DNA of 64,000 nt from a virus, in the IMG/VR virus record IMGVR_UViG_3300023174_009221, one strand, 5' to 3'. A program made the position numbers and the translations under genes. Under the pieces are notes generated by a model. The model did not search any database. It saw nothing but the letters and a program-made list of their open reading frames with translations, and was not told the origin of the DNA. Positions 3,234 through 63,236 of this stretch are shown here, one piece after another (the stretch's first letter is position 1; each line of letters begins with the position of its first letter).

Positions 3234-4034
3234 ATGGCAGATACCAATGGATATGATGACGTGTATGTACCTTATCAAGGAGGCTACACAATCGAAGAAT
3301 TTATAGACCAAATTCAAACTGAGTTAACTATTGCTTGTGCACTTCCAAAGACACTACCAGACGCATCAATAAGACAAATCATCGAAAATAAATGCTTACC
3401 TTATTTTTATCGCAGATATCAATATGCGGTTCAAAAAATGTATTTTTTAATTCAAAAGGAAGCCTTTTTCACCGAAGAGTTCACCAGATATAATTATGTT
3501 AATGTCCCATGTGAGATACAATCAGTCATCTATCTCTATGAAGTCAGAGGGGCTTCTTTGTTTCAATTGGGTATAAACACGCCAAATCTTTCGGTAAACT
3601 TGGGGGTAACAAACCAACCTTACCTATCATCTTATGTGACAACAATTGGAGAATTAGGGGTTTATAAAACCTTATTAGACAATATGTCAGATATGTTAAA
3701 CCAGTTAAACAAATATACACTGAAGCATCACTTTAATCAGCTAAATCACAGGATTCATATTTTAACAAATGTAAACTATGATGTAATTATGGAGGCTTAC
3801 GCTAATATACCAAGAGAGAATTTATTCAAAGATGATCTTTTTTACAGACATGTTTTAGGAAATTCAAAAATTATGTTAGGGAACTTAGTAGGCAGATATG
3901 ACTTCACGCTTCCCGGTTCGGTGAAGATAAATGCGGCTGATTTAGTAACTCAAGGAAAAGAAGATGTTCAGGCAGTTGAAGATGAAATAAAAGGCCAATC
4001 AGATTCGGCTTGGTTCTATTTAGTGAAAAAATAA
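3234..4034 (+). CDS. T4 gp13-like neck (head-tail adaptor) protein
   Basis: C-terminal KIMLGNLVGRYDFTLPGSVKINAADLVTQGKEDVQAVEDEI resembles the gp13 LPGGV.LNG..I..EA..EI motif; size fits; late motif upstream. Confidence 0.75.
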   Translation: MADTNGYDDVYVPYQGGYTIEEFIDQIQTELTIACALPKTLPDASIRQIIENKCLPYFYRRYQYAVQKMYFLIQKEAFFTEEFTRYNYVNVPCEIQSVIYLYEVRGASLFQLGINTPNLSVNLGVTNQPYLSSYVTTIGELGVYKTLLDNMSDMLNQLNKYTLKHHFNQLNHRIHILTNVNYDVIMEAYANIPRENLFKDDLFYRHVLGNSKIMLGNLVGRYDFTLPGSVKINAADLVTQGKEDVQAVEDEIKGQSDSAWFYLVKK

Positions 4035-4061
4035 ACATTATCAACATCTAAAATAAAATAA

Positions 4062-4637
4062 ATGTCGATGAGATATTTATTCATAATATTGATAGCGACA
4101 CTTTGTGTGTCCCAGGTTTTTTCTAAGCCACCAGATTCATTAAAGACAGAAGACTCAATCTTAGAAATTGCAGTTGTTAAGGAGTTAAATCAGCTTAGAA
4201 GTCAAAATAATTTGTCTAATTTTGTTTTTTCTAAAACATTAAAGCAGTGGATATCAGATTCAATAACTGATTACAACATCAGATATGGCGTCAATAAATA
4301 CTTTTTGATAAATGGAATAAATGACAGCGTCAATAATCTACTATTAACTGAACTCCAAAACTCGGTAAAAAAGAATCCGCTATTTTCAGAAATAACTGAT
4401 GTTTTTATTGATCGACATTATGAAATGATTCTGCTGTTAAAATCACCGACTGCGGCCAAGATATCTGACGAATGGATTGTAAATCAACTTTTATCACATA
4501 TCAATTACTTAGATATTTTTAGATTGAAATTATTAGACCACTACGGAAATCCGGCACTTATTTCCTGTTCAATAAAACGAGAGGGAAAAAATCAACTGTC
4601 TGTAGCAATAAATATAGTTGTCTTGGGTTATTACTAA
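4062..4637 (+). CDS. secreted/periplasmic protein, possibly a divergent CAP/SCP-like domain
   Basis: Signal-peptide-like N-terminus (MRYLFIILIATLCVSQVFS); ELNQLRSQNNL resembles the start of CAP domains. Confidence 0.5.
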   Translation: MSMRYLFIILIATLCVSQVFSKPPDSLKTEDSILEIAVVKELNQLRSQNNLSNFVFSKTLKQWISDSITDYNIRYGVNKYFLINGINDSVNNLLLTELQNSVKKNPLFSEITDVFIDRHYEMILLLKSPTAAKISDEWIVNQLLSHINYLDIFRLKLLDHYGNPALISCSIKREGKNQLSVAINIVVLGYY

Positions 4638-4667: not shown

Positions 4668-5291
4668 ATGGAAAAAAATTTACACAAATATCAATATAGG
4701 GTTAGTAAAAAAGAAAGGCAAAATAAATACGGTCAACTTTCACCTGTGTTATGGTTTACCGGACTATCAGGCTCAGGTAAATCAACAATAGCCAATGGAG
4801 TAGAGTCAAAACTTTTTGAATTGGGTTATAAAACTTATGTACTCGACGGAGACAACATTAGAATGGGTCTTAATAAAGATCTTGGATTTTCAAATGAAGA
4901 CCGAAAAGAAAATATTAGAAGAATTTCAGAAGTCGCACAGCTTTTTTCAGATTCTGGAACACTAACTCTAACTGCCTTTATTTCACCATTTATCGAAGAT
5001 AGGGATCAAGCCAGAGAAATTATTGGAACTAATTTTATTGAAATATATGTTAGCGCCTCACTTCAAAGCTGCGAGTCAAGAGACCCAAAAGGGCTCTATA
5101 AAAAAGCTCGACTTGGTGAAATTAAAAACTTTACCGGAATTGACTCACCGTATCAGGCACCCGATTCACCGGAGATTGTTATAGATACAGACACCCTAAC
5201 AATTGAACAATCAGTTGATTTAGTTATCGAATACTTAGTTAATCAAAAAATAATCAAAAATTTAAAAATTACAGAAAATGGAATGGTCTAA
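4668..5291 (+). CDS. cysC: adenylyl-sulfate (APS) kinase
   Basis: [13 protein letters not shown]-loop, [36 protein letters not shown]. Confidence 0.97.
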
Positions 5292-5772: not shown

Positions 5773-6219
5773 ATGTCTAAAAAAGAGAACAAAACATATC
5801 AAATTAGGTTTAACACTAATTCAAAAGACGATTCATCGAGATGGCGTTTAATTGAAAATGGAAAAGAAATTATAGTCGGTGATATCATAGTTGATGGTCA
5901 TACTAAAACGACTAAGGATTGGATCGAAGAAATTGGTGATTGGAAGTGGCATATTTCATGCGTTGGTAATTGTGTGATAAAAAATAATGTGGCACATATC
6001 ACAACGATAAAACAAGAATCAACCATTGTTAGGCATATCTTAAAAACAATTTCTTATAGATTTGTTGGAACAATCACCACTGTTTCTGTTGCCTACTCAC
6101 TTGGGGCTTCTATTGAAATGTCTTCGCTTTTAGGAGTTGGTGAATTAGTTCTAAAGCCGGTCCTTTATTTTTTACACGAAAGAGTTTGGTATAAATACCT
6201 TTCAATAAAGAAAAAGTAA
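5773..6219 (+). CDS. DUF2061-like membrane domain fused to an unknown N-terminal domain
   Basis: RHILKTISYR...LYFLHERVW pattern, a family often found beside cysC. Confidence 0.75.
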   Translation: MSKKENKTYQIRFNTNSKDDSSRWRLIENGKEIIVGDIIVDGHTKTTKDWIEEIGDWKWHISCVGNCVIKNNVAHITTIKQESTIVRHILKTISYRFVGTITTVSVAYSLGASIEMSSLLGVGELVLKPVLYFLHERVWYKYLSIKKK

Positions 6220-37533: not shown

Positions 37534-37607
37534 AAGTGAATTTGGGTATTCACACTGATAAAATCAGACCCCCTATCAAGGGAAAGTTAACCACTACGAA
37601 AACTTTG

Positions 37608-37680
<73 letters not shown>

Positions 37681-37690
37681 ATATATTAAG

Positions 37691-37775
37691 CAGAGAAGGA
37701 GGGATTCGAACCCCCGGATCCGTAAAGATCAACGGTTTTCAAGACCGCCTCATTCGACCGCTCTGACACTTCTCT
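37691..37775 (-). tRNA. tRNA-Ser(TGA); CCA not encoded
   Basis: Cloverleaf with long variable arm, anticodon loop CT-TGA-AA, GGTTCGAATCC, G discriminator. Confidence 0.95.
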
Positions 37776-54519: not shown

Positions 54520-57500
54520 ATGAGTTATATATCATTTGGTTCGTCCTTTTCATTTGCTACTTCCGCTACGCCTTCAGGATGGTTATTAGGTTATGATGTA
54601 GATGGAATACTTAAACAAAAAGATTCTTCTGGAAACATAACACTTGTTGGAGGAGGACCAACAGCAGGAAACTTAGGCACATACTCACTTAGTGATATTC
54701 TATCAATTGGAAACAACACATCGAATCAAAATATTATTTTTGGAACGCAAACCTATTTGAAAAGTTCTAACGGGGGTGGAAAAATTGAATTAGATTATTT
54801 AGGTTTGACAAATTCCATTTTATTATCAACCGATAATAGCGCACTTGGTGAATCTGGTTTACTTTTACAGAATTCTGTGGTTAATCTCTTCTCAAAAGCA
54901 TATAAATCGGCTATTAATTTTGGAGGCAGTGGAAATAACATTTCTATCTACAATTTAAATCCAGGTGGCTGGATTTCAATTGGAGTTGATTCTACACTTA
55001 ATTATTCACAAATAGACGAAATTAAAGTCATGGATAACACATCACTTACCGCATCAACGGGTAATAGTGACAAATCAGCTGTATTAATTGGAACAAAAAA
55101 CTCAAAAATATATCCAGGTGTTTCAAATACGGTAATATTAGGTGGAGATAACATTGTAGCGTCTCAGTCTAATTCAGTTTATGTTCCAGACTTATATTTT
55201 GGTGTGAATAACTCGATTAGATCAACTGGTTCAGACACGATGTTTACACTAAGTGAAGGTAATGGCTTAACGATTTTAGACCGAAATATGTTTAATTACG
55301 ACAAAGCTTGGGTTGTTTTAGGAACTGATTGGAATCCGCTACTCTTTCCACTTTCACCTAAACAATACAGGGAGCTGATAGACATAGGTGTTAACTCTGA
55401 TCCTGGTTCTGGAACCAATTCGATTATTGTAATTTCAAATACTAAAGGACCCACATTTGCTTGGGTTGAATACTCTTCGCTAATAATGGATAAAAGTGAT
55501 TTAACGATTAGCTCATCTGACCCCGATACGACTTATGATACGATTAAATTGAATCTTAATGCTGAAATTGGAACAGCTAAAATATCAGGCCCAATATCAA
55601 CATTTAAAGGGTTAGAATACACAGATGATTATTCTCTAAATTTCTCAACACATTCATTAGTAGATAAAAATTATGTTACAAGTATTTTATCCAATCCGAA
55701 TTTATCTACTGTCTTAACATCAGGAAATGACTCTGGTGTGAAAGATATTATTATGGGAACCGGAACGGTTATAAAATCCAACAATGGAGGCGGTCAATTA
55801 GACTTGGACTTTTCAAGCACATCAGACGACGTTTTGATATCGACCGATTCAGGAGCACTTTCTCAAGCTTATGTTTATTTACAAGGAAATAACATACAAA
55901 TAGAAGCCCCTGGTCAATTTGATTTGACTGCCAATTCGGCCTATATTGATACAGGGGATTCACTTGGTTTGCAATACTCAAATTCTTTTGAATCGACATT
56001 TGTAACCTACTCACTTGTATCAAAAAGATATGTCGATTTAGGAACAGCTTCAATTTGGAATGTTTTGTCTTTGTCTGCAACAGGTTCTGGATCAACTAAT
56101 TATGTTCCTAAATGGAAATCTTCACAAAATTTATCTTCAACATCATCTGTTTATATTACTGATGCTATAGCAAAAGATACATTTTCTACGCTAAATTGCG
56201 GAAATAGACCTATTGGCGTTGAATATGATGGATATAATAATTTAATTTGGGTCACAAACGCACTTTCAAATAATTTATCTATATTCAACTCAGACACTTT
56301 ACAAATAGTAGCCACTGTATCAGTTGGTAACTATCCAATATCAATAAGTTGGGACTCAGTAAATAATCAGATGTTTGTAGCAAACCAAAACTCAGACAAT
56401 GTTTCGGTTATTGATACGGTTACAAAAGCAGTCACGGCTACAATTTCAGTTGGAAACTTTCCTACCGGTGTAATTGTCGACAATAGTAACGGCTTAACGT
56501 TTGTTTCCAATCAAATTGGAGCTTCGGTAAGTGTAATTAACAACAACTCACTTTCAATTACCTCTTCTATATCAATAGCTACCCCAAGACAGTTTACAAT
56601 AGATTCTGATAACGGAAATCTTTGGGTCACTGGAGTTGGTCCAGATTTTATCGCAAAAGTAGATATAAATACACTGACCATAAGTTCAACAGTTTCGGTT
56701 GGAACAAACCCGTATGGGGCGACCTGGGATAAATATGGTGGCAAAATATATGTATCAAACTATGTATCAAACAACGTATCAGTTATTGACACTACAAGCG
56801 ACACAATAGTAGCAACGGTATCTGTTGGTAATAACCCAGATGGAGTTTTATATGACGGAGTAAACAAAAGAGTTTATGTTGCCTGTAGCGGCTCTGGTGT
56901 GGTATCAGTAATTGATACTTTATCAGATACTGTTATCTCATCAATTTTGGTTAATAATTCACCAAAAGAATTTGCCTATGACTTAAAAAACAGTAGAGTG
57001 GCTGTTTCTAATTCAACTGTGAACACTTTACAACTCATTGAAACAATTGATAAACAAGATTTTGTTGGAATAAACACTCATCTACCAACTTCTAAATTAG
57101 ATGTCAGGGGCAGAATCACAACAGAAGAACTTAGAATTTCAACAGGAGCAGTCAATGGATATATTTTGGTTTCTGATGACGCAGGTATTGCAAGTTGGAC
57201 ATCTTCGAATTTTACTTTTTCTAGCACAAGTGGTACTAGCGGAACTTCACCAGCAATCAACACACAAATGAACTGGTCTAATTCAAATAACTCCTATCAA
57301 CAGTTGACAATTTTCGGAGTTACTGCAAACGGATCAATGATAGGAGCAACAGGTGGATTTTACTTTACACCACAATCTACCGGTGATGTTTGGGTATCAT
57401 ATCAGTTTTCAGGCGAACCACAAGATGATGCCATTATTCAACTAAGATATGGAACTGGAACCGCACCTCAAGATGGCGACCCAACATCAGGGGCTCCAAC

Positions 57501-59814
57501 ATCTGAAAAAGCTTTAAAATACATTGGTGGTGACGCTATGGAAATTAATACGATAATTTCCGGCCTCACAGCATCTACTCAATACTGGTTTGCGCTTTCA
57601 ATAAAACCATCGAGCGTAGCTAGTATATACTTTATATATGATTACATAAATGCCTCGGCTATTGAGTTATCTGGAGCAGCTGGTGCCACAGGAAATTCAG
57701 GAACAAGTGGAACATCTGGATTAAGTGGAACTTCAGGAGTTAATGGAACTTCTGGGATATCGGGTTCATCAGGAAGTTCCGGAGTATCGGGTTCATCAGG
57801 AAGTTCCGGAGTATCGGGTTCATCAGGAAGTTCCGGAGTATCGGGTTCATCAGGAAGTTCCGGAGTATCGGGTTCATCAGGAAGTTCCGGTTCATCAGGG
57901 ACCTCTGCAACTTCTGGAACTTCTGGTTCTTCTTTTGCCTGGAAAAATTCTTGGAGTCCATTTACAACATACAATATAAACGATGTTGTTGAGTATGTAG
58001 GCAGCTCTTACATTTGTCTTGCGAATGGGACAAATGGAACACCTCCGCCTCCTTTAAATTCTTCTTGGGCATTGGTGTCACAAGCCGGGACTTCTGGCTC
58101 ATCTGGAACTTCAGGAGTTAATGGAACTTCTGGTATAAATGGAACTTCTGGTATCTCAGGCACATCTGGAACCTCAGGCATCGGTTCATCTGGAACTTCT
58201 GGAACTTCCGGAGTATTGTCACTATCAGGAACAACCGACAATGGTCTAATAACTCTGGACGGTTCAGCTCCGAACGGAACAGTAGAATCAAATTTGACAT
58301 TTGATGGAAATACACTATCGGTATTTGGAGGGTTAGTAGTAAGCGGAGGATTTACTGTAAGTGGTTCGTCTACAGTTATTAATACCACTAATTTAAGTGT
58401 TCAAGACCCTATTATACTTCTAGCATCAACACAATCTGGCACACCAACACTTGACTCTGGTATCTTTATATCAAGAGGAAGTGGTCAAACTCAATCACTT
58501 ATCTGGGATGAATCAGATGATGTTTTTGCATTCATTAAAACCAATGACTCAAGTTCGGTGATTGGTAATGTGGCAATAGATTCTTATTCTGATTTGAGAG
58601 TTGCCAATTTATCAGTAGAAGGATTTAAATTGACCGCAACTCCAAGTAACGGATACTTTTTACAATCCGACGCATCTGGAAACGGAAGTTGGGTTCAATT
58701 ATCATCAATTCAAGGCTCAGGGACATCAAGTTATCTACCGAAATGGTCTTCTGCAACTGGATTAACTAACTCATTGATTTATGACAATGGAAGCAGGGTA
58801 AGTATTGGAACTACCTCAGCAAACACAGAATCGGTGTTTCATATAAGAACATCCACTCAAGGTAGAAGAAACTTCTATATACAAGACACAGCAAACAACA
58901 CATCATCGGCTTTTAACCAATCTTATGGTCTTTACACCGATATGAGTAATTCAGGAACAAGTAGTTATGGCGTTTATAATCAAGTTACGGGGTCAACAGT
59001 TAACAACTACGGTATCTATAATTACATATCGAGTTCAACTAACAGTTACGGGCTTTATAACTCACTTTCATCAACTGGAACTAAATATGGACTCTATAAT
59101 TCATCCCAAGCAACCGGAGTTGTATATGGGGTCTATAACACGTTTGTATCAAACTCTGGGACAAAATATGGATCATACACTTTTCTTGGCGAAGGCGGAA
59201 GTCCAACAAACACAACCACCACTTATGGATCATATACACTAATACATTCAGGTCAAAACACCTATGGTCAATATATTTATACTAGTCCTGGTCTACCTAA
59301 TTCAAACAACAGAGGTCAATATATCCGAATGTCAACCACTGCTTCAAATTGGGGTCAACAAATATGGATAGATGGTCCAGGAAGTGGAACAGGTTCATAT
59401 ATTCAAGTTTCGGGAACCGGATCTCTTAATTATGGTGTCTACATCGACTCATATTCAGCTTCAACTAATTATGGATTGGTTGTAAATAAAGGAACATCAA
59501 TATTTAATGAATCATCCCTAGACAACGATTTCAAAATAAAGGGAATAACAAATTCAAACTTATTCTTTGTCGATGCCTCAAATGATAATATCGGTATAGG
59601 AACATCAACTCCGAACGCAAGTGCGATACTACACATCAGTTCAACCACATCAGGTTTCTTACCACCAGTAATGACAGGTTCGCAAGCAGAAGCAATAGTC
59701 GGACCAACAGAAGGACTATTAGTTTATGCAAATGCAGGTGATGGTGCTTTAATAACACAAAAGGGTTGGTGGGGATATAATGGGGCTACTTGGAGTAAAC
59801 TAAATAATTTCTAA
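54520..59814 (+). CDS. long mosaic tail fibre / receptor-binding protein with YVTN beta-propeller and Ser/Thr-Gly triplet repeats
   Basis: VATVSVGNxP blades; (SGT/SGS)n tracts; IGIGTSTP trimer motifs; YGxYN repeats; TAATATATA at 54487-54495. Confidence 0.8.
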   Translation: MSYISFGSSFSFATSATPSGWLLGYDVDGILKQKDSSGNITLVGGGPTAGNLGTYSLSDILSIGNNTSNQNIIFGTQTYLKSSNGGGKIELDYLGLTNSILLSTDNSALGESGLLLQNSVVNLFSKAYKSAINFGGSGNNISIYNLNPGGWISIGVDSTLNYSQIDEIKVMDNTSLTASTGNSDKSAVLIGTKNSKIYPGVSNTVILGGDNIVASQSNSVYVPDLYFGVNNSIRSTGSDTMFTLSEGNGLTILDRNMFNYDKAWVVLGTDWNPLLFPLSPKQYRELIDIGVNSDPGSGTNSIIVISNTKGPTFAWVEYSSLIMDKSDLTISSSDPDTTYDTIKLNLNAEIGTAKISGPISTFKGLEYTDDYSLNFSTHSLVDKNYVTSILSNPNLSTVLTSGNDSGVKDIIMGTGTVIKSNNGGGQLDLDFSSTSDDVLISTDSGALSQAYVYLQGNNIQIEAPGQFDLTANSAYIDTGDSLGLQYSNSFESTFVTYSLVSKRYVDLGTASIWNVLSLSATGSGSTNYVPKWKSSQNLSSTSSVYITDAIAKDTFSTLNCGNRPIGVEYDGYNNLIWVTNALSNNLSIFNSDTLQIVATVSVGNYPISISWDSVNNQMFVANQNSDNVSVIDTVTKAVTATISVGNFPTGVIVDNSNGLTFVSNQIGASVSVINNNSLSITSSISIATPRQFTIDSDNGNLWVTGVGPDFIAKVDINTLTISSTVSVGTNPYGATWDKYGGKIYVSNYVSNNVSVIDTTSDTIVATVSVGNNPDGVLYDGVNKRVYVACSGSGVVSVIDTLSDTVISSILVNNSPKEFAYDLKNSRVAVSNSTVNTLQLIETIDKQDFVGINTHLPTSKLDVRGRITTEELRISTGAVNGYILVSDDAGIASWTSSNFTFSSTSGTSGTSPAINTQMNWSNSNNSYQQLTIFGVTANGSMIGATGGFYFTPQSTGDVWVSYQFSGEPQDDAIIQLRYGTGTAPQDGDPTSGAPTSEKALKYIGGDAMEINTIISGLTASTQYWFALSIKPSSVASIYFIYDYINASAIELSGAAGATGNSGTSGTSGLSGTSGVNGTSGISGSSGSSGVSGSSGSSGVSGSSGSSGVSGSSGSSGVSGSSGSSGSSGTSATSGTSGSSFAWKNSWSPFTTYNINDVVEYVGSSYICLANGTNGTPPPPLNSSWALVSQAGTSGSSGTSGVNGTSGINGTSGISGTSGTSGIGSSGTSGTSGVLSLSGTTDNGLITLDGSAPNGTVESNLTFDGNTLSVFGGLVVSGGFTVSGSSTVINTTNLSVQDPIILLASTQSGTPTLDSGIFISRGSGQTQSLIWDESDDVFAFIKTNDSSSVIGNVAIDSYSDLRVANLSVEGFKLTATPSNGYFLQSDASGNGSWVQLSSIQGSGTSSYLPKWSSATGLTNSLIYDNGSRVSIGTTSANTESVFHIRTSTQGRRNFYIQDTANNTSSAFNQSYGLYTDMSNSGTSSYGVYNQVTGSTVNNYGIYNYISSSTNSYGLYNSLSSTGTKYGLYNSSQATGVVYGVYNTFVSNSGTKYGSYTFLGEGGSPTNTTTTYGSYTLIHSGQNTYGQYIYTSPGLPNSNNRGQYIRMSTTASNWGQQIWIDGPGSGTGSYIQVSGTGSLNYGVYIDSYSASTNYGLVVNKGTSIFNESSLDNDFKIKGITNSNLFFVDASNDNIGIGTSTPNASAILHISSTTSGFLPPVMTGSQAEAIVGPTEGLLVYANAGDGALITQKGWWGYNGATWSKLNNF
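57760..57890 (+). repeat. perfect 27-bp tandem repeat, four full copies plus 23 nt, encoding SGSSGSSGV
   Basis: Unit TCGGGTTCATCAGGAAGTTCCGGAGTA at 57760, 57787, 57814, 57841 and partial at 57868. Confidence 0.95.
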
Positions 59815-60329: not shown

Positions 60330-60566
60330 CTATTTCGACTCTGGTTTTAATCCCCTATCTCCAATTAATTTCATTTTTCTCCCGTCGCTCCATATAAAGG
60401 CCTCATTGGGTGAAATCATCTGAAATGAATCACATTCAACATATGTTACGGTGTAGTTAATGTTATCACCTTGGCAAACACCAATTGTAAAATTTTTTTT
60501 CCTTCTCGGGCCTACACAAGAAAAAAATGTAGATAGAATCACCAATACGAATAAACTTTTTTTCAT
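60330..60566 (-). CDS. small lipoprotein
   Basis: MKKSLFVLVILSTFFSC signal peptide with lipobox-type Cys. Confidence 0.7.
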   Translation of the reverse strand: MKKSLFVLVILSTFFSCVGPRRKKNFTIGVCQGDNINYTVTYVECDSFQMISPNEAFIWSDGRKMKLIGDRGLKPESK

Positions 60567-60576
60567 ATATTATACT

Positions 60577-60690
60577 TTAAGCAGTTTTGTTTTTATGTTT
60601 TTCTTTTCTGGAGTATGTTTTCTTACTTTTCTCAATTTGAGGTCGAGTTGCTGCCCAGATTTCTTGAAGAGTAAGTTGAATTGTTTTCAT
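60577..60690 (-). CDS. 37-aa ArfA-like basic peptide (MKTIQLTLQEIWAATRPQIEKSKKTYSRKEKHKNKTA)
   Basis: Below the ORF-track cutoff; own -7 TATCTTTG at 60711-60718; R..IEK.KK..Y.RK.KH pattern. Confidence 0.6.
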   Translation of the reverse strand: MKTIQLTLQEIWAATRPQIEKSKKTYSRKEKHKNKTA

Positions 60691-60779
60691 TTGTTCTACT
60701 TTTAATTATTCAAAGATAGTAAATTTTTCTTAGATAAAAAAAAATAAAAAAAAATAAGAAATTTTTTATATATAGTCAT

Positions 60780-62411
60780 ATGAGATATTTAAAATTATAT
60801 GAGGCCTTTTCTTCCAAGGGCATTTCTAAAACTATAAATTTTTTATCACAAAAAATATCAAGTCAATCGAAAGAAAAATTCTTAGAAGATCTAAAAGAAT
60901 TTATGCAAAATTCAGATTATCCGCTAAATAAATTAACGGATGACTTTATACAATATCTACCGTTCAAAAAGGCTATTTTATTAAAAAATGACAAAGATGT
61001 GTCCAACAGAAAGGGTATCTGGGTAATTAAATATTGGTTTTCAGTTGAAAATGGCTATTTAGGATATACCGCAACAGGAAATAAAACATACACCTTTCGA
61101 GAACCAAAAACAATCCATAACAGCCCAAATAGAAAAGACCCACCCTTCACTAATCGAGAGTTAGACTATATCAAAAAAAATATTACAGAAACCGGTATAA
61201 TCTGCAGAGTAACAGACTATAGTAAATTAAAAACCGGTCAAGTTGTAATTGGTATATTTGGTGGTGACATTGCGATAGCTACTGTTTATGTTGATAACAG
61301 AGATAGAGTCTACGCCATACAGAATGTAGCATCTGGTTCGTATCCATCAGACTCAGGTTGGCGTGAATACACAGAATACGGTGACCAATCTTGGTATATT
61401 TATGAACCAAGAACTATACCAGATGACCACGAAAAGCTTACTTTTTATACACCAGGTGATGAACCACTAAGATATGAAGAAAAAGAAGAGCCATCGCAAT
61501 CAGAAAATCTGTCTCATCTGAATTGGAATTTACCTTTAGACTATAATTTTAACCAAGTAATATGGTCTGACTCTGATATGAACTCCATTTCAAGTTATAA
61601 AGAAGTTAGTAATGCTGACTTTGCTTTAGTTTTAATGTATGATGATTTATTGAATCCGGATGTAGATGCTCCCACTTTTGAGCCAGTATCGGATATCAAA
61701 AAATTTAGAGAGGAGTCAAAATCTGGGTCAACTCACTTTATGACAGATGAAGAGATAGCTAAGTCTAATTATAACAGATTAATGGATAGGTTAATTTCTA
61801 TTTATGGTCTGGAATTGAAATCTCAAGAGCAGGATTTATTGAATTTACAAAAATTATTTTCCACTTTTTTATGTGGAGAAAAAATCCTTTACAGTTTAAT
61901 TGCAGGCGAACCAGACACTGAAAATATTTATCGGTTTGAACAAAATATAAAATATTTGATAACATGTGAAGATGATGAGGAATCAAAAAAGTGGGCCTTT
62001 GAAAAAGTCAAAAAAAGCTTTTTTTCATATAAAGAGGAATCAAAAAAATATGTTGATAGATTTTCTGGATCTTTAAAAAGAGTTCAGGACGAGGGCGACG
62101 AAGAAACGATTGAAATTTTTGATAAACTATCAAAACTAAGTAAAAAGATTTTACAACTTATTTTTATAAAACCCGTAACAACTCTTAATGAATTAAGATA
62201 CTTACTGTCTAAAATATACAGTATAACTTATTACTACTCAAAAACCGATAAATCAAGAGGCCTTTACAAAGTATTCAGTAATATAAAATTTAATGATAGT
62301 GACGTATCAGATGGTATAGGTATAATGGCAAAAAGAACGCAAGTAGAAATAGAAGAAGACAGAAAATTCGTTGACGAATTAGAAAAATACATTTTACAGC
62401 TGTTAGGTTAA
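60780..62411 (+). CDS. tagged late protein (MRYLKLYEAF)
   Basis: TTTATATATA 5 nt upstream; 543-aa ORF. Confidence 0.75.
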   Translation: MRYLKLYEAFSSKGISKTINFLSQKISSQSKEKFLEDLKEFMQNSDYPLNKLTDDFIQYLPFKKAILLKNDKDVSNRKGIWVIKYWFSVENGYLGYTATGNKTYTFREPKTIHNSPNRKDPPFTNRELDYIKKNITETGIICRVTDYSKLKTGQVVIGIFGGDIAIATVYVDNRDRVYAIQNVASGSYPSDSGWREYTEYGDQSWYIYEPRTIPDDHEKLTFYTPGDEPLRYEEKEEPSQSENLSHLNWNLPLDYNFNQVIWSDSDMNSISSYKEVSNADFALVLMYDDLLNPDVDAPTFEPVSDIKKFREESKSGSTHFMTDEEIAKSNYNRLMDRLISIYGLELKSQEQDLLNLQKLFSTFLCGEKILYSLIAGEPDTENIYRFEQNIKYLITCEDDEESKKWAFEKVKKSFFSYKEESKKYVDRFSGSLKRVQDEGDEETIEIFDKLSKLSKKILQLIFIKPVTTLNELRYLLSKIYSITYYYSKTDKSRGLYKVFSNIKFNDSDVSDGIGIMAKRTQVEIEEDRKFVDELEKYILQLLG

Positions 62412-62842
62412 ATACCCCTTTGTGACTCTCTTTTCAAATCTCGTTCTTTTATAGTTTGTCTTTTATCCCATAATTTTTTTCCTTTAACAACCCCAATTTT
62501 TAATTTTATTTTGTTGTTTTTTATAAATATTTGAAGTGGAACACAAGTAACACCGTTATCTGAAAAAAGTTTGGAGATTTTTAAAATCTGAGACTTGGTG
62601 AGTAACAATTTTTTTTGTCTGTTTTCATCATGAGTATCAGCAAAATGTTGTTGTTTGTATCTACTGACTTTGAAATTTTTTATCCACAATTCTCCGTTAT
62701 TAAAAAATATATATGAATCAGTTAGATTAACACCACCCAAACGAATAGACTTTACTTCGGTGCCTATTAATATAATACCAGCATCAAATTCTTCAATGAT
62801 TTGATATTCAAAATAAGCCTTTCTATTGTTTGCTAAATTCAT
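62408..62842 (-). CDS. smpB: SsrA-binding protein SmpB
   Basis: NRKAYFEY, AGIILIGTEVKSIR, KKLLL, KGKKLWDKRQTIKERD. Confidence 0.95.
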   Translation of the reverse strand: MNLANNRKAYFEYQIIEEFDAGIILIGTEVKSIRLGGVNLTDSYIFFNNGELWIKNFKVSRYKQQHFADTHDENRQKKLLLTKSQILKISKLFSDNGVTCVPLQIFIKNNKIKLKIGVVKGKKLWDKRQTIKERDLKRESQRGI

Positions 62843-62847
62843 AAATA

Positions 62848-62878
62848 CAAAGATAAATAGAATTTCTTAAACAACAAA
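62848..62878 (-). promoter_or_regulatory. Bacteroidota-type promoter (TTTG-N19-TATCTTTG) for smpB
   Basis: Consensus match ending 5 nt before the ATG. Confidence 0.75.
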
Positions 62879-62894
62879 CCGTAAATATATGCAA

Positions 62895-63236
62895 TTAAAG
62901 ATACTTGTCTAAAATTTCCACTAATTTATCCTTCTGAAAACTACCAATAATTTTAACAGGGTTTCCCTCTTCATTTAAAATTGGATTTCCAGCTTTATAA
63001 AAAAGAATAGTTGGGACATTTCTGACTGATAGAGTTTTTAACAACTCACTACACTCGTCAGCATTTAATTTACCACACCAGACTCTGCCTTGATATTGTG
63101 AAGAGACTTCGTCTATAATTGGAGCAATTGTTTTACAAGGACCACACCAAGGGGCCCAGATATCTATAAGACTAAAATCATTTTTAGTGAAACTTTCAAA
63201 GTTTCCTTCATTCAATTCTGTTATGTAAGCCATCAT
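62895..63236 (-). CDS. trxA: thioredoxin
   Basis: WAPWCGPCK, KLNAD, VRNVPT. Confidence 0.92.
   Translation of the reverse strand: MMAYITELNEGNFESFTKNDFSLIDIWAPWCGPCKTIAPIIDEVSSQYQGRVWCGKLNADECSELLKTLSVRNVPTILFYKAGNPILNEEGNPVKIIGSFQKDKLVEILDKYL

Follow-up and report, generated by a model that had tools for sequence, protein, structure and literature searches.

Two questions are raised by this locus: whether the 37-residue ORF at its centre is a real gene, and whether its product is a phage-borne ribosome rescue factor acting with the smpB gene that lies nearby. Phage-encoded tmRNA and SmpB are already known (PMC7162821), and the first-pass annotation had read the ORF as an ArfA-like peptide that might form one arm of a two-arm rescue kit. 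In what follows, the window is the whole 64-kb stretch of viral DNA that was analysed. The features concerned are these:

60330..60566 (-): 78-aa ORF with a lipoprotein-like signal peptide at its N-terminus; it starts 10 nt past the stop codon of the peptide gene
60577..60690 (-): coding sequence of the 37-aa ArfA-like small protein, with an ATG start and a TAA stop, containing RPQIEKSKKTYSRKEKH
60711..60718 (-): TATCTTTG, a putative -7 promoter element (Bacteroidota consensus TAnnTTTG) that ends 20 nt 5′ of the peptide ATG
62408..62842 (-): smpB, 144 aa (PF01668, E = 4.3e-52, profile positions 2-139 of 143)
62848..62855 (-): second copy of TATCTTTG, ending 5 nt 5′ of the smpB ATG

The layout that the first-pass annotation had described is thus present in each part: a small ORF with a -7 element of its own, smpB at about 1.7 kb (1,718 bp from the peptide ORF), and a host-type element at smpB, which proves to be the same octamer. 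SmpB appears intact, with a full-length PF01668 match and a DKR motif (W-D-K-R) in the C-terminal tail. Judged by its sequence, the TATCTTTG copy upstream of the 37-aa gene would serve as its promoter, and the second copy, if it is a promoter, would give rise to a leaderless or near-leaderless smpB mRNA. TAnnTTTG is not enriched across the window as a whole (116 occurrences versus 100 ± 10 expected), and among family members it is found at most 80 nt upstream of the gene in 69 of 124 unique upstream regions versus 6.9% of random 80-nt windows. The 78-aa ORF is a likely operon partner of the 37-aa gene, and it has no Pfam or PHROG family match.

A thioredoxin gene (window 62895-63236, minus strand) adjoins smpB. 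No tmRNA was found in the 64-kb window, the only RNA genes there being tRNA-Met (CAT) and tRNA-Ser (TGA), which lie side by side (37607-37775, minus strand). To the left of the small ORFs is a gene for a 1,764-aa protein (54520-59814, plus strand) with long collagen-like G-[ST]-S-G repeats and repeated YVTN-type beta-propeller-like units. It is likely to be a tail fibre or a protein for receptor binding. The nearest relatives of the window are the 'uncultured phage' genomes LR745206 and LR756502 (635-642 kb).

The gene family and its carriers

The ORF belongs to a large family of small proteins spanning 35-60 aa. A word-indexed search of 5.8 billion proteins returned 20 homologues of 36-39 aa with 66-95% identity, and when 1.84 billion cluster representatives were searched (the clusters being formed at 50% identity), 261 matched the family profile at E ≤ 1e-3 and 82 at E ≤ 1e-10. 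At least 165 relatives were confirmed in IMG/VR, and metagenome contigs hold at least 144 further relatives for one sub-clade. Across 124 unique 32-codon cores the median dN/dS is 0.13, and 99.9% of 1,494 pairs are below 0.5. Residues K24, Y26, R28, K29, and K31 are invariant in the family alignment (A2), and T7, E10, A14, K21, K23, and H32 are conserved in at least 90% of it. Conservation, which the first-pass annotation had left to be checked, is therefore plain: the homologues, the 261 matching clusters and the median dN/dS place the ORF beyond chance, and it is a real gene under strong purifying selection. A chance ORF is rejected on the dN/dS values.

Bacteroidota phages carry the family. 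Its profile matches none of 400 other sampled Bacteroidota genomes, which argues that the family is phage-borne, and a scan of GTDB species genomes gave six matches, all in metagenome-assembled genomes (MAGs); four of these are Bacteroidota, and the remaining two MAGs, in which the match is on a short contig, are labelled Pseudomonas and Microbacteriaceae. Within 50,697 phage records the only cultured carriers are three Flavobacterium phages, vB_FspM_immuto (four records), and the family gene of immuto is annotated as a 'hypothetical protein'.

Several variant forms of the gene were seen. The few copies on bacterial contigs from Bacteroidota MAGs (L083, L085, and L087; 63-268 kb) have lysine-rich N-terminal extensions of 10-45 aa, and one IMG/VR contig (L034) contains two diverged paralogues about 1 kb apart (4912-5052 and 6001-6111). 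In a 430-kb phage (G712; L136, ~4001-4400) and in P0273 the family member continues in frame into an extension of ~100 aa, which could reflect either a lost stop codon or a genuine fusion; the extension starts with a lipoprotein-like signal (a hydrophobic run followed by Cys), echoing the 78-aa lipoprotein-like ORF of the window. The 635-kb relative LR745206.1 has a distant family member of up to ~59 aa (~460,193-460,435; L241, 1333-1575), with a different N-terminus, KY in place of KH, and a score of 21.7 bits against the family profile.

The linked 'two-arm kit' proposed in the first-pass annotation does not extend to the family. Neither SmpB (by tblastn) nor tmRNA (by ARAGORN) was found within 4-6 kb on each side at any of 211 other family loci, so that adjacency of smpB to the family gene is not conserved. 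The usual neighbours are genes for DUF932, thioredoxin and glutaredoxin, and thioredoxin recurs beside the small-protein gene in unrelated smaller phages (39 loci). At the level of whole genomes, six of ten large family-carrying phage records, most of them near-complete, have a tmRNA scoring above the Rfam cut-off, and four of nine such large records encode SmpB; immuto has neither SmpB nor tmRNA. This co-occurrence is partial and, being counted among family carriers only, is no more than suggestive.

Likeness to ArfA and a terminator-like hairpin within the reading frame

The segment of E. coli ArfA that had been quoted in the first-pass annotation is correct and corresponds to residues 26-45 of the K-12 protein. 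The match had been called strong except for the missing GKG. The gap at GKG is confirmed and ArfA does top the list of PDB matches, but the likeness is weak, with reversed sequences scoring alike. A profile search of 177,635 distinct PDB sequences gave E. coli ArfA as hits 1-4, with E-values of 0.5-2 that are not significant taken alone; the alignment covers ArfA residues 26-51, which occupy the mRNA channel and include the KH motif. Alignment of the family with ArfA by hhalign gave P-values of 0.006 and 0.009 (48-50% identity over 22-23 columns), a comparison of limited power because the ArfA profile (A3), drawn from a search of one bacterial class with ArfA in three of 300 genomes, is thin (Neff 1.9). 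E. coli ArfA scores 17.0 bits against the family HMM as compared with a maximum of 8.3 over 4,800 shuffles, and the window peptide scores 11.7 bits against the ArfA HMM, a value reached by just 0.06% of shuffled family sequences. Reversed family sequences nonetheless score about as well as real ones against the ArfA HMM (medians of 4.0 and 5.0 bits and maxima of 15.2 and 12.5 bits, respectively), so the likeness is largely that of a lysine-rich cluster around S/T-Y and homology to ArfA is unproven. Against the family HMM, two true but divergent ArfAs have scores near zero. In a language-model search of the ESM Atlas, which we treat as a lead only, the 30 closest of 7.7 million included one cluster of DUF7230 (0.90) and one of ArfA (0.89).

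Against the ArfA model PF03889 (curated cut-off 25.5 bits) genuine ArfA proteins reach 32-89 bits. The model has no match in the window peptide (E ≤ 10), in 22 close relatives or in 137 family representatives (E ≤ 1). There is also no sequence match to BrfA among the PDB sequences at E ≤ 10, or to ArfT among the KGG-type Pfam families. The K-G-K-G-S loop of ArfA, in which G35, K36, G37, and S38 are invariant (alignment A3), is absent from the family, and every alignment of the family with ArfA has a three-residue gap at GKG. The Y-x-RK-x-KH motif of the ArfA basic tail is present, and the genes are located on phage contigs and in Flavobacterium phages rather than on proteobacterial chromosomes. 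With no match to the model, no GKG and similar scores for reversed sequences, membership of ArfA (PF03889) is rejected, as are membership of BrfA and ArfT for lack of a sequence match. The ArfA likeness is real but weak, and from the sequences convergence is as possible as common descent.

A different kind of resemblance is found in the organization of the gene. In some family members the C-terminal tail is long, hydrophobic and poorly conserved, and here a GC-rich hairpin with a T-run behind it begins 5-15 nt past the KH codon and is complete before any in-frame stop. This arrangement is present at 39 unique loci with 25 distinct hairpins, eleven of which were folded, giving -9.6 to -14.6 kcal/mol with z-scores of -2.0 to -5.6 relative to dinucleotide shuffles. 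Each of stem pairs 1-8 (numbered from the loop) is formed by several Watson-Crick pair types among the 25 hairpins; pair 4, for example, is A-T in 13, G-C in seven, C-G in three, T-A in one, and G-T in one. The stem pairs were counted by script, as MAFFT misaligned hairpins differing in loop length. It is the structure of the hairpin that is conserved, by covariation, and not its sequence. A separate terminator scan also places a terminator at 6104-6124 of locus L075, inside the ORF at 6001-6171.

The in-ORF terminator-like hairpin is concentrated in a sister clade with the motif QE[RK]W, where it occurs at 34 of 44 unique loci versus five of 119 other loci; one of these five (L190) groups by sequence with the window copy. 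The stop codon lies a median of 18 codons past KH in this clade, versus five elsewhere. Among the cultured phages, immuto gp147 (49 aa) has such a hairpin, with the T-run at ~67,330-67,345 of NC_055915.1. Most family members, including the window copy, end in ordinary stop codons, and most copies have no terminator at all. In the window copy there are five codons between KH and TAA with no hairpin 3′ of the stop, and the 3′ region is not more stably folded than its shuffled versions (z = 0.13).

A hairpin inside the ORF that leaves the mRNA without a stop codon is the control described in reviews for arfA and brfA. The brfA gene has a terminator ahead of its stop codon, arfA has a hairpin that yields a truncated mRNA, and in both cases tmRNA marks the product for destruction except when trans-translation cannot keep pace (PMC8012679). 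Reading from the DNA, the mRNA of the sister clade should lack a stop codon and follow the same logic, since a transcript that ends at the in-ORF terminator would give a product tagged by tmRNA unless trans-translation is saturated. The window copy, with its stop codon, lack of a hairpin and host-type promoter element, would instead be made unconditionally on infection. We know of no other gene class with a terminator placed inside the ORF in such a non-stop design, and for this reason we give it more weight than the sequence likeness. The ArfA-like reading of the first-pass annotation accordingly stands in part: the gene is real and the terminator-like hairpin in the ORF of its sister clade points to biology of the ArfA/BrfA type, but it is not a member of the ArfA family.

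A palindromic repeat, TTAAAG-N6-CTTTAA, is present in about four tandem copies right after immuto gp147 (NC_055915.1, ~67,368-67,458; L247, 3640-3730) and is also found just downstream of the family gene at two other loci (L067 and L070). The TAA stop of gp147 falls within the first copy, and the long tails probably owe their recurring ...SKA[FL]L end to this repeat holding the stop. The repeats may constitute an operator or promoter array.

Proposed function and its alternatives

An AlphaFold2 model of the peptide (137 sequences, mean pLDDT 81) has residues 1-7 extended, a helix at 8-15, and an extended, basic tail at 16-37, which in the window peptide carries KSKK-x-Y-x-RK-x-KH. We propose, with confidence slightly above even for the mechanism as a whole, that the family is a rescue back-up brought by phages, which releases ribosomes trapped on broken mRNAs. 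The basic tail would enter the 30S mRNA entry channel only when this is empty, as happens once a ribosome has reached the 3′ end of such an mRNA and stalled, and its KH pair would contact 16S rRNA in the manner of ArfA and BrfA. A host class-1 release factor, recruited by the short N-terminal strand and the helix, would then hydrolyse the peptidyl-tRNA. The phage would benefit in that ribosomes are kept free while host or phage nucleases, or RNA-cutting defences, create non-stop mRNAs. Binding to the ribosome, the identity of the partner release factor and the gain for the phage are all inferred, and a role in counter-defence is speculation. The smpB gene at 1.7 kb suits the model, as does the tmRNA of six of the ten large carrier records. 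A complex prediction for the window peptide (A2) with an RF2 from a Bacteroidota MAG (A6), run without controls, scored 0.00 and counts neither for nor against binding.

Could the product instead be a small basic nucleic-acid-binding protein unrelated to rescue, either an early-made DNA or RNA binder or a protein with another role at the ribosome such as translation modulation, whose likeness to ArfA is compositional? Reversed sequences score as high as real ones, there is no PF03889 match, and the neighbours in most phages (DUF932, thioredoxin and glutaredoxin) are not translation genes, all of which would fit. Such a protein would leave unexplained, however, why a whole clade keeps an in-ORF terminator without a prior stop codon and why ArfA tops the PDB list over many lysine-rich ribosomal and chromatin proteins, and we consider this account possible but rather unlikely. 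The tail might also act as a decoy that fills the empty mRNA channel in competition with the tails of SmpB or ArfB, such that host trans-translation is shut down or the non-stop products of the phage are shielded from tagging. A synthetic SmpB-tail peptide does inhibit tmRNA-SmpB binding (PMC8012679), and the tail is the most conserved part of the family while the N-termini vary (P0021, L241). Several phages nevertheless carry the family together with their own smpB and tmRNA, which a decoy would block too, and for the non-stop clade an inhibitor made only once trans-translation fails makes little sense; a decoy is improbable.

The in-ORF terminator could alternatively mark a sensor or regulator, the peptide of the non-stop clade accumulating when host trans-translation is saturated and then switching phage timing or lysis through nucleic-acid binding. 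Phages are said to sense the state of the host by tmRNA status (PMC7162821), which would suit this account, but most members end in ordinary stop codons, the window copy among them, and there is no evident target, leaving it quite improbable. That there is no functional protein at all, the ORF being either fortuitous or a leader peptide whose translation modulates the overlapping terminator, draws on its very short length, its lack of annotation and the overlap of terminator and ORF in one clade. The median dN/dS of 0.13 over the 124 unique cores, the five invariant residues (K24, Y26, R28, K29, and K31 in A2) and the lack of a terminator in most copies argue against this, and we give it hardly any credence.

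The rescue reading is directly testable, as there is a cultured pair in vB_FspM_immuto with its gp147 and Flavobacterium sp. LMO8. Were it true, ribosome rescue would join tRNAs, tmRNA, and SmpB as translation functions imported by phages, here through a factor spread over hundreds of Bacteroidota-infecting phage lineages that bring their own ribosome recycling against mass mRNA breakage, whether in takeover or from RNA-cutting defence. It would also name a family of hundreds as well as part of DUF7230 / phrog_6310, and the re-arrival at terminator-in-ORF control would mark this as a general solution rather than a peculiarity of arfA and brfA. In the literature searched there is no report of a virus-encoded ArfA-, BrfA-, or ArfT-like factor, and no release-factor-dependent rescue factor is named for Bacteroidota. 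Being tiny and independently evolved, further factors of this type are expected to be difficult to detect (PMC8012679). We put the chances at about even that release-factor-dependent rescue, with ArfA, BrfA, and ArfT as its named types, has in this family a fourth type and its first virus-borne one, with one clade wired to trans-translation and another unconditional.

Comparison with DUF7230 and the known rescue factors

The only library family matched is DUF7230 (PF23876) / phrog_6310, to which the family of the 37-aa peptide, having no Pfam family of its own, appears by sequence to be a sister. The window peptide matches it below threshold (21.9 bits, E = 2e-4, with a cut-off of 27) over profile positions 16-35 of 42, and 105 of 137 family representatives match it, the best at E = 4.2e-6. 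The two have the stretch [RK]P-x3-K-x-KK in common, whereas L088, a true DUF7230 member (36.9 bits), differs at the N-terminus and lacks Y-x-RK-x-KH. DUF7230 scores above its cut-off in one of 301 Bacteroidota genomes, and that member had no tblastn match in the 50,697 phage records. E. coli ArfA itself matches DUF7230 weakly (E = 0.11).

ArfT of Francisella, a release-factor-dependent rescue factor of ~40 aa with a charged segment, indicates that small size is no obstacle to a rescue role (PMC8012679). Its charged element differs in being a helix, often repeated, within a KGG-repeat family (PMC6514570), and the window peptide has no sequence match to the KGG-type Pfam families.

BrfA is longer (~62 aa), has two N-terminal helices touching the 50S subunit, and is absent from the PDB matches at E ≤ 10 (177,635 sequences). 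Like the phage family it has a KH motif within a basic tail (PMC6881298). Its gene has a rho-independent terminator ahead of the stop codon, such that active protein is made from a truncated mRNA (PMC8012679), a layout matched by the one predicted for the sister clade.

With ArfA the family shares a small size and an extended basic C-terminal segment, and 11 of 17 aligned positions (R26-H45) are identical between the window peptide and E. coli ArfA, including Y-x-RK-x-KH. A true but divergent ArfA (L106) is at least 38 aa long, its frame running off the contig end. The hairpin within the ORF of the sister clade, which is expected to yield a non-stop mRNA, is a further likeness. The arfA hairpin is an RNase III site, whereas that of the sister clade is terminator-like, with a T-run, and the window copy has a normal stop codon. 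Further differences are that the N-terminal half of the family has no likeness to ArfA, and that ArfA is encoded by beta- and gamma-proteobacterial chromosomes whereas the family belongs to Bacteroidota phages. ArfA cut to 40 residues, which loses RK-x-KH, is inactive (PMC8012679), and KH is the one contact common to ArfA and BrfA, being made to U534 of 16S rRNA (PMC6881298, PMC8012679). Convergence has likewise been argued for ArfA and BrfA (PMC6881298), and if our model holds, the family works like these two factors while being a member of neither.
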